Source: Bacillota bacterium (GTDB lineage Bacteria; Bacillota_I; Bacilli_A; RF39; UBA660). From it: 64,000 nt of DNA. How positions within the stretch are numbered: the stretch's first letter is position 1; each line of letters begins with the position of its first letter. The notes below the pieces were generated by a model. The model made no database searches and had not been told where the DNA came from. It saw nothing but the letters and a program-made list of their open reading frames with translations. The DNA is taken from contig SVAO01000003.1 in NCBI GenBank assembly GCA_015059365.1, forward strand, positions 3,682 to 67,681. Reading direction: 5' to 3'. Positions 6,995 to 11,057 of this stretch are shown one piece after another. A program made the translations under genes and the position numbers.

Positions 6995-7624
6995 CTACTT
7001 AGTAACGTCAATCATATATATTACTTGCCCACGTGATACAAATCTATCCTCATATTCAGTCGGTATATTTAATTCATGATCATCATTATATAAATCTAAT
7101 GATATATCTTCTATTTTATATCCATAATTGTTAAATGATCTAATAGAAAACTCAAATAGCTTTCTATTATCAGTTTTCATCACAATATTTTTTATATCTT
7201 TAAATATCAAATCATACTTTTCCAAAAACTTAATACTTGATAGGCGCCTATGTTCATGTCTATCTTTTGGCCATGGATCTGAAAAATTCAAATAAATTCT
7301 ATCTATTTCTTTATCAAATACATCATTTATTTCAAGTGCATCCATTCTAATTAGTTTTAAATTAGGAATATCCATATTCCCAATTTTTTGAATTGCCCTA
7401 ACTATCACACTATCATACTTTTCAATACCAATAAAATTAATATTAGGATATTTTAATGCATTATTTATTATAAATTGCCCTTTCCCCATACCTATTTCAA
7501 TATAAATAGGATTATCATTGTCAAACAACTTTCTAAAATTACCACGAAATTCTTTTGGCTCTAGTAAGATATAACTAGATGATTCAATTTGTTCTTTTGC
7601 ATTCTTTACATTTCTTAATCTCAC
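6995..7624 (-). CDS. trmB: tRNA (guanine-N7)-methyltransferase
   Basis: IEIGMGKG, FIGIE and LNFSDPWPK motifs. Confidence 0.95.
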   Translation of the reverse strand: MRLRNVKNAKEQIESSSYILLEPKEFRGNFRKLFDNDNPIYIEIGMGKGQFIINNALKYPNINFIGIEKYDSVIVRAIQKIGNMDIPNLKLIRMDALEINDVFDKEIDRIYLNFSDPWPKDRHEHRRLSSIKFLEKYDLIFKDIKNIVMKTDNRKLFEFSIRSFNNYGYKIEDISLDLYNDDHELNIPTEYEDRFVSRGQVIYMIDVTK

Positions 7625-7724
7625 TTTATCACCTATTTAAATTATAACATACTTATATATCAAAAAAAAGAATGAAAGTTGAACTTGTCAACAAAAATCA
7701 TTCTTTTTTCATTAAATTTTATGT

Positions 7725-8690
7725 TTATACATAAACTCTCGCTATATACGTATATGCTTGATCATCAATAGTAACCACTATAGTTAAATAGTGAGGGTTT
7801 TCATCATCATTAAGTGCATCTATTGAATATGGCATAGCATAAGATGCGATTTCAGTATCAGCACCAAAAAACACAAGTTTATCCGTATAAGTTGATAATT
7901 TATAATTTACCATTACAGAAATAGTACTGCTATTAACAAATTCATTAATTTCCTTATCTGCGCCTTTAACTGTAACTTTTAAATTCAAATAATCTTTTGT
8001 TGGATCATTCAACACAACTTCACCGTCATCAATCGAATTGACAACATCAATTCCAATTCCATATATGTTATCATTTGTAAACGTTTTTTCTTCTTGTTCA
8101 TATGAATCAGCTTGTGCATATACAGTTGTTATTTGATAAGTAAAGTTTTTATCTCCTGCAGCCCAATTTCCTCCAAAACGAGCATCAATTTTAAATATTT
8201 TTTCATTAGAGTCTGTTGGTATATAACAAGGAGTATTTTCACCACATGCAAATCCTCCTATATTAAGTCCAGAATTTAACACACCTAAATCAACTTCTGT
8301 ATCTGCTAATATATCTTGTGCTACTACATTTTGTCCACTACCAAGAATATTAAAATTTACGTATGTACTAGTTTCACTCTTACTTAAAGAGTCCCAATCT
8401 TTATCATTTGCCCCTACAAATGTAGATGGTGCCCCTTCACTTGTTGTACTAATATCTGTGATTTTTGCACTTACTGGTACAAATGACTTATTTTCCATTG
8501 TCATGTATGCTGGAGTTCTTTCTCCAGTTGTTAAATCTAAAGTAATATCTGCTGATATTGTTGTTACTACTTCGATACTGATATCACCAACAATATTTAC
8601 TCCAACATCTGTTGTTTGTGCTAATACACTATATGGCATATATGTTATCATTGTTACTACTAATAATATATAACTTATTATTTTTTTCAT
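7725..8690 (-). CDS. secreted beta-rich surface protein, unknown function
   Basis: Signal peptide ending VLA/Q; T/S/D/N-rich beta-strand pattern; no enzyme motif. Confidence 0.65.
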   Translation of the reverse strand: MKKIISYILLVVTMITYMPYSVLAQTTDVGVNIVGDISIEVVTTISADITLDLTTGERTPAYMTMENKSFVPVSAKITDISTTSEGAPSTFVGANDKDWDSLSKSETSTYVNFNILGSGQNVVAQDILADTEVDLGVLNSGLNIGGFACGENTPCYIPTDSNEKIFKIDARFGGNWAAGDKNFTYQITTVYAQADSYEQEEKTFTNDNIYGIGIDVVNSIDDGEVVLNDPTKDYLNLKVTVKGADKEINEFVNSSTISVMVNYKLSTYTDKLVFFGADTEIASYAMPYSIDALNDDENPHYLTIVVTIDDQAYTYIARVYV

Positions 8691-8703
8691 ATTTTACCTC
8701 TTT

Positions 8704-9183
8704 CTAATTTTTTATTGTTAAATTTATTTCTACTCCACTTTTTCCTTTATAATTATTATTTCCATCATAAGCCTCAAAATAAGCAATACATTTATAACTA
8801 CCTTTATTTATTTTTTTATCTAATGCTGCTTCATCTATTTTTTCACCTGGATTTAACTTAGGTGATGTATAGATTAATTCATTGGTATCTTTTAAATATA
8901 TTTTTACTATCACATCATAAACGTTATTACCTTTATTTTCTATTCCAAACTTGCCTTTTTTAAAGGAACTTTCTAAAGTTATCGCAGAATTTATTTTGAT
9001 TGCTAATTGATTACTATTTAATTTGCCTGCAACCTCTTCTCCTTTTTCAACAGTCTCATTTTTGTTTCTATTTTCCATTGCTTTTTTTATTACAAGAAAC
9101 GAAGACGTTGAAAATGCGATTGCAAGTAGTAATAATATTACAAAGTTTTTTAATGAACTAAGAACTTCATTTTTCTTCTTCAT
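8704..9183 (-). CDS. membrane-anchored Ig-like protein (IENxxxNxY..LIYxSxxLxPG family)
   Basis: N-terminal TM; IENKGNNVYDVIVKIYLKDTNELIYTSPKLNPGE resembles a family I recall from Firmicutes surface-protein loci; RBS AAAGGAGG. Confidence 0.6.
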   Translation of the reverse strand: MKKKNEVLSSLKNFVILLLLAIAFSTSSFLVIKKAMENRNKNETVEKGEEVAGKLNSNQLAIKINSAITLESSFKKGKFGIENKGNNVYDVIVKIYLKDTNELIYTSPKLNPGEKIDEAALDKKINKGSYKCIAYFEAYDGNNNYKGKSGVEINLTIKN

Positions 9184-9225
9184 CTATATTTGGCACTTCC
9201 TCCTTTCTAAAACACAAAAAAACAC

Positions 9226-9249
9226 AAAAAATTCTAGTTTTCTAGAATT
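9226..9249 (-). terminator. leader terminator-like hairpin upstream of the 9183 gene
   Basis: AATTCTAG-AAAA-CTAGAATT followed by long U-runs on the minus strand; AU-rich stem. Confidence 0.5.
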
Positions 9250-9282
9250 CTTTCGTGCTTTTCTGTTGAAGTGATTTTTGGG

Positions 9283-9342
9283 TTAGTAATATACCCCCCC
9301 CCAGGTGATATTGATACTATTTAAAATACCATTCATAACCAT
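9283..9342 (-). CDS. putative 19-aa leader peptide MVMNGILNSINITWGGVYY containing a G9 tract
   Basis: RBS AAGGAAGTGA upstream of ATG; read manually; below the ORF-track cutoff. Confidence 0.4.
   Translation of the reverse strand: MVMNGILNSINITWGGVYY
9294..9302 (-). repeat. G9 homopolymer (C9 on plus strand)
   Basis: Direct count of 9 C at 9294-9302 in a very AT-rich context. Confidence 0.95.
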
Positions 9343-9366
9343 AAAATCACTTCCTTATCTTGTTAC

Positions 9367-9395
9367 ATTTTAGCACATTCAGTTCATTTTGTCCA
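9367..9395 (-). promoter_or_regulatory. sigma70-type promoter for the 9183-7725 operon
   Basis: TGGACA-N17-TAAAAT with extended -10 TG. Confidence 0.6.
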
Positions 9396-9397
9396 TA

Positions 9398-9676
9398 TTA
9401 TTGTTTTATTTTTCTAACATATGCTTCCATCTCTTTTAAAGCATCTCCACGCAAAGGCTTACACTTCTTATAGTTTTGTATTTCTTCTAACATTGCTTTT
9501 GCCATTCCATCACAACTACCATATCCACATGCTCCACAATTATATCCTGGTAAAAGTTTACGAAATTCATCTTCTTTATTTTCCCTACGGTTTAATTTGT
9601 AATCTATAGTTACTAAAATAACACTTAATAGTAAAGCAAGTAAAGTAAGTATTAATATTCCAATCATTTTATACAC
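9398..9676 (-). CDS. rnfB: short RnfB (TM plus N-terminal Fe-S domain only)
   Basis: LPGYNCGACGYGSC..CKP motif; last gene of the rnf cluster; no ferredoxin repeats. Confidence 0.8.
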   Translation of the reverse strand: MYKMIGILILTLLALLLSVILVTIDYKLNRRENKEDEFRKLLPGYNCGACGYGSCDGMAKAMLEEIQNYKKCKPLRGDALKEMEAYVRKIKQ

Positions 9677-9769
9677 CTCTTACATTCACTACAATTTTTT
9701 GAACACTTATTCTTATTATATAAAACTATCGTTAATATAAATAATAAAATTAATATAATAAACCCCATC

Positions 9770-10339
9770 TTATCCTCCTATATATCTAGAAAAAATTAAA
9801 GCCATAATAGATGCAGTAATTAACGCAATGGGTGTTCCTTTAAATGGTTTAGGAACATTAGAAGTATCTAAACGTTCTCTAATAGTTGAAAAAATATATA
9901 TAACTAGTGTAAAGCCTATTCCACTACCAAAACTAAAAATAAGTGTTTCTAATAAAGTAAAACTATTATTTATATTTAATAAAACTGTTCCCAAAACCGC
10001 ACAATTAGTAGTTATAAGAGGTAAATAAATACCTAATGCATCATATAGTTTTTTTGATTTGCTGCGAATAATAATTTCAACAATTTGAACCATTGAAGCA
10101 ATTACTAAAATAAATACAATTGTTTTTAAATATGTAGTATCTGATGGAACCAATACATAATAATATAGTAAATAAGTTATTAAACTAGAAATAGTTACAA
10201 CCCCAGTTACAGCAATTCCCATCATTACCGCATTTTTACTATCCTTAGAATTACCAATAAAAGGACATATACCTAAAAATTTAGTTAAAACTACATTTTC
10301 AGTTAAAATACTTACTATAAATATACTAATTAGATTCAT
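9770..10339 (-). CDS. rnfA: Rnf complex subunit A
   Basis: ENVVLTKFLGICPFIG and LITTNCAVLG; start reassigned to MNLISI. Confidence 0.92.
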   Translation of the reverse strand: MNLISIFIVSILTENVVLTKFLGICPFIGNSKDSKNAVMMGIAVTGVVTISSLITYLLYYYVLVPSDTTYLKTIVFILVIASMVQIVEIIIRSKSKKLYDALGIYLPLITTNCAVLGTVLLNINNSFTLLETLIFSFGSGIGFTLVIYIFSTIRERLDTSNVPKPFKGTPIALITASIMALIFSRYIGG

Positions 10340-10958
10340 CTTTTTCACCTCTTATATAATTAATTATTCCCGCAAATATTCCTAAGGTAAAAAATGCACC
10401 AGGCGGACTAATTAAAAAATTCATTGGAAATAAATTAGATGTTGGTAATTTATAAATTGCTCGGTACCCAGTTAGTGAACTTAGTCCATCCATTAATGTT
10501 ATTGTATTTGAACCTAAAATTTCTCTAAATGAAGCAATTAAAATTAAAGCAATTGTATACCCTAATCCTATTCCTAACGCATCTAACAAGCTTTTTCCTA
10601 CTCTTTCTTTTGAAGCAACGGATAATGCTCGACCTAAGACAATACAATTTACTACTATTAATGGTAAATAAATTCCTAGTGCTTTATATAAAGCTGGAAC
10701 ATAGTTTTGTAATAATAGTTCAACAATAGTTACGAATGTACCTATTATTAAAATATAAACCGGGATTTTTACATTTTCAGGAACTATTTTTTTTATAAGA
10801 GAAACAACAAAATTACTAAATAATAGAATTATTAATACACAAAATCCCATCATATATGCATTTTCTATTTTTGTAGTAACTGCAAGGGCGGGACATAAAC
10901 CTAAAAATAAAACAAAAACCGGATTTTCATTCTTTATACCATTTATTATTGTTTTCAT
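10326..10958 (-). CDS. rnfE: Rnf complex subunit E
   Basis: ENPVFVLFLGLCPALAVT, LIVVNCIVLGRA and PPGAF motifs. Confidence 0.92.
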   Translation of the reverse strand: MKTIINGIKNENPVFVLFLGLCPALAVTTKIENAYMMGFCVLIILLFSNFVVSLIKKIVPENVKIPVYILIIGTFVTIVELLLQNYVPALYKALGIYLPLIVVNCIVLGRALSVASKERVGKSLLDALGIGLGYTIALILIASFREILGSNTITLMDGLSSLTGYRAIYKLPTSNLFPMNFLISPPGAFFTLGIFAGIINYIRGEKDESN

Positions 10959-10961
10959 ATT

Positions 10962-11057
10962 TCACCTCGTTAACATTACAACTAAATATAATAAACTTGA
11001 ACAAATTAAAGCAGTTATGGTTAAAACTAAAACACCTTGTAATTTTTTATTTTCCAT
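10962..11057 (-). CDS. 31-aa single-TM micro-protein resembling the RnfG N-terminal anchor
   Basis: MENKKLQGVLVLTITALICSSLLYLVVMLTR; overlaps the rnfD stop, ends 3 nt before the rnfE ATG; AAGGAG upstream (alternative in-frame ATG at 11069). Confidence 0.6.
   Translation of the reverse strand: MENKKLQGVLVLTITALICSSLLYLVVMLTR

Follow-up and report, generated by a model that had tools for sequence, protein, structure and literature searches.

What does a run of nine G residues do when it lies in the 5' leader of genes for exported proteins? The question was raised by the window analysed here, that is, the whole stretch of 64,000 nucleotides (nt) taken from contig SVAO01000003.1 (positions 3,682 to 67,681; assembly GCA_015059365.1) of an uncultured gut bacterium of the Bacilli, whose genome, designated G000, measures 0.92 Mb, has 27% GC and is 84% complete. 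On the minus strand of this window, a G9 tract is situated between a promoter and a pair of genes, within a small open reading frame (mini-ORF) that ends before a terminator-like hairpin. Judging from reading frames, predicted folds and the comparison of related genomes, the locus is probably a slippage-driven, leader-peptide-dependent transcription attenuator, which would serve as a phase-variation switch for the two exported-protein genes. Related genomes, contigs and loci are denoted below by G, C and L numbers, respectively.

The promoter, the mini-ORF equipped with a Shine-Dalgarno (SD) sequence, the G9 run, the inverted repeat and the hairpin had been noticed before in an inspection of the nucleotides alone (the sequence-only reading), and all of them were confirmed on the minus strand (Table 1). 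With 10 of 12 matches, the promoter was the best promoter-like site within positions 7500-9800. The inverted repeat (9268-9290 / 9331-9353) comprises 23 nt with 83% complementarity and contains the 18-nt arms of the earlier reading. The hairpin is formed by GAATTCTAG and CTAGAATT around its AAAA loop and its stem was lengthened by RNAfold to ~18 bp (9259-9221), with a free energy (dG) of -15.5; a U-rich tail on its 3' side, UUUUUUUGUGUUUU (U7GUGU4), directly precedes the strong ribosome-binding site (RBS) and the ATG (9183) of the first gene. The whole leader was predicted to fold at -52.7 kcal/mol (z = -6.1 relative to shuffled sequences).

Table 1. Location of the features discussed. Coordinates are those of the window unless a contig of G000 is named; the two further leaders correspond to loci L060 and L053.
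Feature	Position	Strand	Description
Promoter, sigma-70 type	9367-9395	-	TGGACA (9395-9390), 17-nt spacer, TAAAAT (9372-9367); TG before the -10 box
SD of the leader mini-ORF	9347-9356	-	AAGGAAGTGA, 4 nt before the ATG
P1 stem, 5' arm	9331-9353	-	spans the SD and the two in-frame ATGs of the leader
Leader ORF	9283-9342	-	ATG 9342 to TAA 9283; 19 codons plus stop with G9; encodes MVMNGILNSINITWGGVYY
G9 homopolymer	9294-9302	-	codons TGG GGG GGG G.., slippage-prone; leader codons 14-17
P1 stem, 3' arm	9268-9290	-	begins in the region of the stop codon used with G9 (UAACCCAAAAAUCACUUC)
Predicted intrinsic-terminator-like hairpin	9207-9265	-	core stem 9259-9221, AAAA loop 9241-9238, pairing extended from 9265
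SD region of gene 1	9196-9208	-	AGAAAGGAGGAAG, predicted to be unpaired
Gene 1 of the controlled operon	8704-9183	-	159 amino acids (aa), N-terminal membrane anchor, no family match
Gene 2	7725-8690	-	321-aa secreted all-beta protein, signal peptide ..SVLA/QTT, no Pfam match
Hairpin and T-run after gene 2	7662-7709	-	precedes trmB and probably ends the two-gene operon; read from sequence
Second G9 leader	contig C9, 30302-30310	+	
Third G9 leader	contig C8, 11972-11980	-	

The length of the tract determines where the leader peptide ends. With G9, the frame is closed by a UAA at position +8 counted from the tract, which leaves 26 nt to the terminator stem. With G10, the peptide ends in ..STKEF and its stop codon lies inside the 5' arm of the hairpin, while with G8 or G11 it ends in ..KHERILEN, the stop codon lying where the 3' arm begins, immediately beyond the loop. 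What the sequence-only reading had translated for G8, G9 and G10 was reproduced by computation and proved correct. The peptide grows to 33 aa when the tract is G10 and to 35 aa when it is G8, and the 33-aa form had been annotated by the gene callers of the Joint Genome Institute in G10 samples (three such annotations).

Runs of this length are very rare in G000. The G/C runs of the genome amounted to 77 of length 5, 16 of length 6, two of length 7, none of length 8 and three of length 9, the latter against ~0.03 expected, that is, an over-representation of about 100-fold. All three G9 runs were found in 5' leaders of exported-protein genes, inside an SD-equipped mini-ORF, with the core ACCTGGGGGGGGGTAT in common.

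Tract length was compared among samples or assemblies and among paralogous cassettes. Contigs of 10 other metagenome assemblies encoded the identical structural protein; six of these assemblies carried G10 and four G9. Five of the six G10 sequences were otherwise identical to the window over ~250 nt, and the sixth (L028) showed an additional A-to-C change 3 nt before the tract; the four G9 sequences all belonged to a slightly diverged lineage. The G10 form had been assembled independently in six samples from three sources. Furthermore, among the 11 sequences available for the locus on contig C9, ten had G9 (the genome's own copy and nine samples) and one sample had G8, this being the sole difference in 182 nt. 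The leader tract thus has the traits of a contingency site with length polymorphism; an invariant length, which had been named beforehand as an outcome that would speak against a switch, was not what the comparison between samples showed. Regarding the decoding of the tract, tRNA-Gly(UCC) and tRNA-Gly(GCC) were the only tRNA-Gly species found in G000, and GGG is a rare codon in this genome (5.9 per 1000); on GGG GGG, ribosomes may thus pause or slip, which could make a switch of this kind leaky.

The same arrangement of promoter, G-tract mini-ORF, terminator and RBS was found repeatedly in related genomes, in 3 to 17 or more copies each. The records of these relatives are metagenome-assembled genomes (MAGs) of uncultured Bacilli, 'Tenericutes' or Bacillota and, where the title gives the source, come from roe-deer colon or goat rectum. 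A genome of the same genus, G002, yielded 17 matches to the module, and 15 of its sites (one of them cut by a contig end) were aligned together with one site of G006. The aligned cassettes were near-identical over ~240 nt, comprising TTGACA-17-TAAAAT (homologous to the promoter of the window), an SD and ATG, a mini-ORF encoding MVRVSTKNKLTKITTWGGVFK followed by a stop codon, a long terminator and an RBS, and nearly all of them were located upstream of type IV pilin-like genes (MKKKGFTLIELLAVIVVLAII). They differed chiefly in the tract itself, which was G9, G10, G11 or interrupted (GGGGGTGGGG). About four of 16 G002 cassettes were in a terminator-reaching frame (L017 by computation; L020, L015 and L021 read by hand).

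When the search was extended to 151 genomes of the family, the pattern CCT-G8+ was detected in 14 of them, with 1-14 copies each, and the reversed control pattern gave zero matches. The idea that a conserved CCT flank marks all of the tracts was discarded after an unbiased scan for G9, which revealed genome-specific flanks (AACT, AAAT, TTGT, ACAT); tracts of exactly G9 with such flanks were present in 52 of the 151 genomes, up to 35 per genome. That maximum was reached in G017, where the flank is AACT..T. Three layouts were distinguished. Layout A, a mini-ORF followed by a terminator, was found in the window, G002, G005, G006, G094, G169, G150 and G078. Layout B has the tract in the promoter spacer, for example in G048 (L035), G012 (L036) and G152 (L037) and probably in G017 (L082-L086), as in TTGACA-aaaagccctG9-TACAAT. 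In layout C, represented by G016 (L043, L051, L058) and G081 (L039), the tract lies among the first codons, at the 5' end of the coding sequence for a membrane or surface protein. The tracts of layouts B and C are G9-G11. The G tracts look like a general contingency device of the family, in which the locus of the window belongs to layout A.

Two further observations were made during this survey. At locus L096 of G157 (about 140-200), GAUUUAGCCCUCCUCC lies directly 3' of the G9 run, and the tract can form the 5' arm of a hairpin against a C/U-rich 3' arm, so that its length would alter the stem directly. Additionally, a large share of the G-tract sites in G012, G169, G094, G005 and G150 lay ~1-300 nt from a contig end, and the repeated cassettes appear to be points at which the assembly of such MAGs is interrupted.

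An SD and ATG mini-ORF entering the tract was present in each of the eight layout-A lineages (8/8), compared with 3-7% of shuffled upstream regions per lineage. The peptides encoded by these mini-ORFs are unrelated in sequence among the eight. In all of them, the short frame stops at least 20 nt before the 5' arm of the terminator, and at least one frame ends no more than 4 nt from this arm, inside it or beyond it.

The G9 and G10 alleles were predicted to have the same fold and energy (-52.1 kcal/mol), so tract length is unlikely to act through RNA structure, and the reading frame is the obvious route. The SD of gene 1 is unpaired, which makes control of this gene at translation initiation unlikely. 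The arms of the inverted repeat were paired by RNAfold as a stem, P1, in which the leader SD and ATGs face the segment that begins at the early stop codon. Stems of other sequence with the same targets (the leader SD or AUG against the post-stop segment) were predicted in G002, G005, G094 and partly in G169, and analogous SD-sequestering stems also in the two other G9 leaders of G000; no such stem was predicted in G006. We read the inverted repeat as an RNA element, P1, which would close the translation start of the leader once its 3' arm has been made, so that the terminator would then respond only to a ribosome that loads while the transcript is nascent. The segment AACCCAAAAA of the 3' arm (9275-9284) is complementary to the duplicated UUUUUGUGUU in the terminator tail (9211-9230), but the antiterminator pairing that this suggests is A/U-rich and by eye has no counterpart in the G002 cassette, and it was set aside.

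From these elements, the following sequence of events can be proposed. The constitutive promoter would start a leader of ~177 nt, and a ribosome would load on the SD-equipped mini-ORF and read across the G tract. With G9 (or G12), it would stop at the UAA 26 nt before the stem, the hairpin would form and RNA polymerase would terminate, leaving the operon OFF. With G10, G8 or G11, the frame would remain open and the ribosome would come to rest in the 5' arm or at the start of the 3' arm, blocking the hairpin and permitting read-through (ON). Replication slippage in the tract would flip cells between the two states, heritably and reversibly. By pairing the leader SD and AUG with the post-stop segment, P1 would probably confine leader translation to a co-transcriptional window and keep untranslated transcripts OFF. 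We infer that transcription terminates at the hairpin, that the ribosome relieves this termination and that P1 has such a role, whereas the anatomy of the leader, the tract-length polymorphism and the conservation of the module were observed. According to this scheme, the window and the four slightly diverged G9 samples are predicted to be OFF and the six G10 samples ON. The claim of the sequence-only reading that slippage switches a surface operon is thus favoured by a tract that varies between samples and between paralogous cassettes, by a layout recurring in at least eight lineages and by frames that fall as described; the support is comparative, not experimental.

The two genes that would be switched encode products with export signals, and on these signals alone the label 'surface operon' is reasonable. 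No significant family was obtained for either of them in a Pfam and NCBIfam search. The homologues of the gene 2 product (n = 22 beyond the window's own protein) share a conserved N-terminal part of ~200 aa and have a variable C-terminal part, which is replaced among them as in modular adhesins; the protein of 321 aa in the lineage of the window has 367 aa in a closely related lineage (loci L027, L029, L032 and L033). The structure model of this product was of low confidence (pLDDT, predicted local distance difference test, 59). A permissive Rfam scan of positions 8000-11000 returned only chance-level matches and no known riboswitch or leader. Upstream of the leader there is an rnf operon, and an identity look-up of its 92-aa rnfB-like protein gave no record.

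Several points weigh against the attenuator model. The arrangement of 'one early stop plus one terminator-reaching frame' was also obtained in 45-83% of shuffled tract-hairpin spacers, and in 64-77% for the window locus alone; it is not unusual, and the frame layout is therefore compatible with the model and no evidence for it by itself. RNA polymerase of Firmicutes can outrun the ribosomes, and ribosome-mediated antitermination is kinetically demanding. The leader hairpin was not called by a simple terminator scan; our guess is that its A+U-rich, bulged stem fails the stem criteria of the scan. The rnf operon, whose rnfB-like gene has its stop codon at 9398-9400, 2 nt from the -35 box of the cassette, has no terminator of its own and adjoins the cassette promoter, so rnf transcripts should continue into the leader, where the same hairpin would end or gate them. 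As the only terminator candidate after the rnf operon, this hairpin may thus have ordinary operon termination as part of its role. A loss of mismatch repair was considered as the cause of tract instability and rejected, since mutS and mutL are present in the genome.

The leaders on contigs C9 and C8 also belong to these points. Their promoter is TTGACA-17-TACAAT on C9, with TTGAAA as the -35 box on C8, and their mini-ORF, starting with GTG on C9 and with ATG on C8, encodes M-EKVDKMYTWGGVFKN followed by a stop codon. A stem of 13 bp (UAGGUGAUAUCGA / UUGAUAUCACCUA) encloses this mini-ORF and sequesters the SD of the leader, and no terminator precedes the RBS of the paralogous membrane-anchored proteins downstream; in these leaders, then, the tract can work by another route.

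These two leaders, with a G9 mini-ORF and an SD-sequestering stem ahead of no terminator, are an argument for a tract that is hypermutable and regulatory but acts without ribosome-mediated antitermination, an explanation that we regard as rather unlikely for the locus of the window. The tract would then be the target of a small RNA (sRNA) or a protein, affect mRNA stability, with the 5' stem and ribosome loading as stabiliser, or cause slippage or pausing of RNA polymerase. The G run of G157 that pairs directly with CCCUCCUCC in a hairpin and the lack of significance of the frame layout relative to shuffles agree with it, and a leader G-repeat is known as an sRNA target: in Helicobacter pylori tlpB, a G homopolymer of variable length in the leader, which is untranslated, is the binding site of the sRNA RepG and sets expression after transcription start (PMC8295292). 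Among alternative models for a G tract in a leader, the tlpB/RepG pair comes nearest, and the counterpart of RepG here would be a C/U-rich small RNA. The tract of the window differs from that of tlpB in lying inside an SD-equipped mini-ORF ahead of a predicted terminator. Against a route of this kind stand the SD and ATG mini-ORF that spans the tract in all eight terminator-type lineages, the identical folding of the G9 and G10 RNAs, and the position of the tract ~110 nt upstream of the main start with the terminator in between. No C/U-rich partner stood out in the genome either, although the scan for C-rich pyrimidine 9-mers, with ~100 places and no obvious candidate, was uninformative.

It is very unlikely that nothing regulatory is present, with the hairpin as terminator of the rnf operon, a fortuitous mini-ORF and G9/G10 differences due to homopolymer errors of sequencing or assembly. 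The hairpin is indeed the first terminator-like structure after rnfB, homopolymers are error-prone and the simple scan calls no terminator; nevertheless, the module occurs with its own promoter before pilin-like genes at 16 or more unrelated sites of G002 and in many other genera, the G10 form recurs in independent assemblies, the over-represented G9 runs are confined to such leaders, and the mini-ORF is conserved across lineages. Finally, the possibility, raised by the sequence-only reading for its 18-bp repeats, that the 18-23-nt repeats are recombination sites between which the leader ORF and G tract invert, as in invertible-DNA phase switches of the cwpV/fim type, is scarcely credible, since the imperfect inverted repeat flanking the tract has arms that differ in sequence in other lineages and always cover the leader SD or AUG, as expected of an RNA stem, and the segment had the same orientation in 11 of 11 assemblies, the inverted form not being found.

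The attenuator model has a close precedent, so the belief of the sequence-only reading that a coupling of slippage to ribosome-mediated attenuation had not been described was wrong. In Streptococcus gallolyticus pil1, the slippage of a repeat in a leader-peptide gene was demonstrated to be coupled to ribosome-mediated relief of a premature terminator, and the same was described for pil3 (Danne et al., 2014, PLoS Pathog, PMC3894217). In-frame changes of the GCAGA repeat keep the stop codon 39 bp before the terminator and expression is low, whereas changes that shift the frame yield a longer peptide, which ends in the terminator or beyond it, and expression is high; mutants of the ATG, of the stop codon and lacking the terminator behave as predicted (PMC3894217).

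The likeness to the locus studied here is considerable. Both have a simple-sequence repeat in a leader-peptide ORF, a premature stem-loop terminator (predicted in our case) and, in S. gallolyticus, surface-appendage genes downstream. The short peptide stops ~30-40 nt before the terminator in pil1/pil3 (28 nt or more in the paper) and 26 nt before it with G9 in the window, and the stop distances in the eight layout-A lineages match those by which the low state differs from the high one in S. gallolyticus. There, the switch is thrown at random and its state is inherited, as is also proposed for the window locus. In contrast, the repeat of S. gallolyticus consists of 13-23 GCAGA units and that of the window is a G homopolymer without sequence homology; pil1 is a sortase-pilus operon, while the genes of the window encode unrelated exported proteins and those of G002 are type IV pilin-like. 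Unlike S. gallolyticus, the host is an uncultured gut lineage of Bacilli with a genome of ~1 Mb and several terminator-type cassettes in each related genome, and the leader of the window has an added stem sequestering its SD and AUG. The window element is an analogue, not a homologue, of the S. gallolyticus switch.

G8-G11 tracts that are far over-represented in an A+T-rich genome, polymorphic in length between strains and linked to surface-protein genes are likewise shared with the poly-G/C contingency loci of Campylobacter jejuni, Neisseria and Helicobacter. The tracts of those organisms are usually part of the structural gene itself or of the spacer of a promoter, whereas the tract of the window occupies a regulatory mini-ORF distinct from the structural genes; both of the usual positions are represented among the genomes related to it. 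In the trp, his and drug-induced erm/vmlR-type leaders, an intrinsic terminator farther downstream forms or not depending on where the ribosome stands on a short leader ORF, and the input is a charged tRNA or a drug that stalls the ribosome, reversibly within one cell. The input proposed for the window is, unlike theirs, a mutation that moves the end of the leader ORF. An amino-acid-sensing attenuator of the trp/his type was not recognised, as the downstream genes encode exported proteins and no conserved antiterminator pairing was found. Full-text literature searches revealed no homopolymer version of a leader-peptide attenuation switch and nothing for this lineage.

The design itself is thus not new; of most interest is how widespread the module is among uncultured gut Bacilli and in how many copies they carry it. 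We see about an even chance that it is a portable, self-contained module (promoter, SD-sequestering stem, G-tract mini-ORF, terminator and RBS) amplified across a family of gut Bacilli with genomes of ~1 Mb, which together with the promoter-spacer (up to 35 tracts per genome) and 5'-coding layouts would constitute a Gram-positive 'phasome' switching type IV pilin-like and surface paralogues independently, and that P1 is a functional addition, absent from S. gallolyticus, that restricts leader translation to the nascent transcript. Since the module is small (~240 nt) and self-contained, its logic is directly testable in laboratory Firmicutes. Mini-ORFs of this kind are missed by the annotation of MAGs, and the tract length in an assembly represents the majority state of one population, not a fixed genotype. 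If the proposal is true, leader-peptide attenuation would be a widely used design for stochastic surface variation in abundant, uncultured gut bacteria with reduced genomes, not the curiosity of one streptococcus, and it may gate the pilin and adhesin repertoires that shape their interactions with host and phage.

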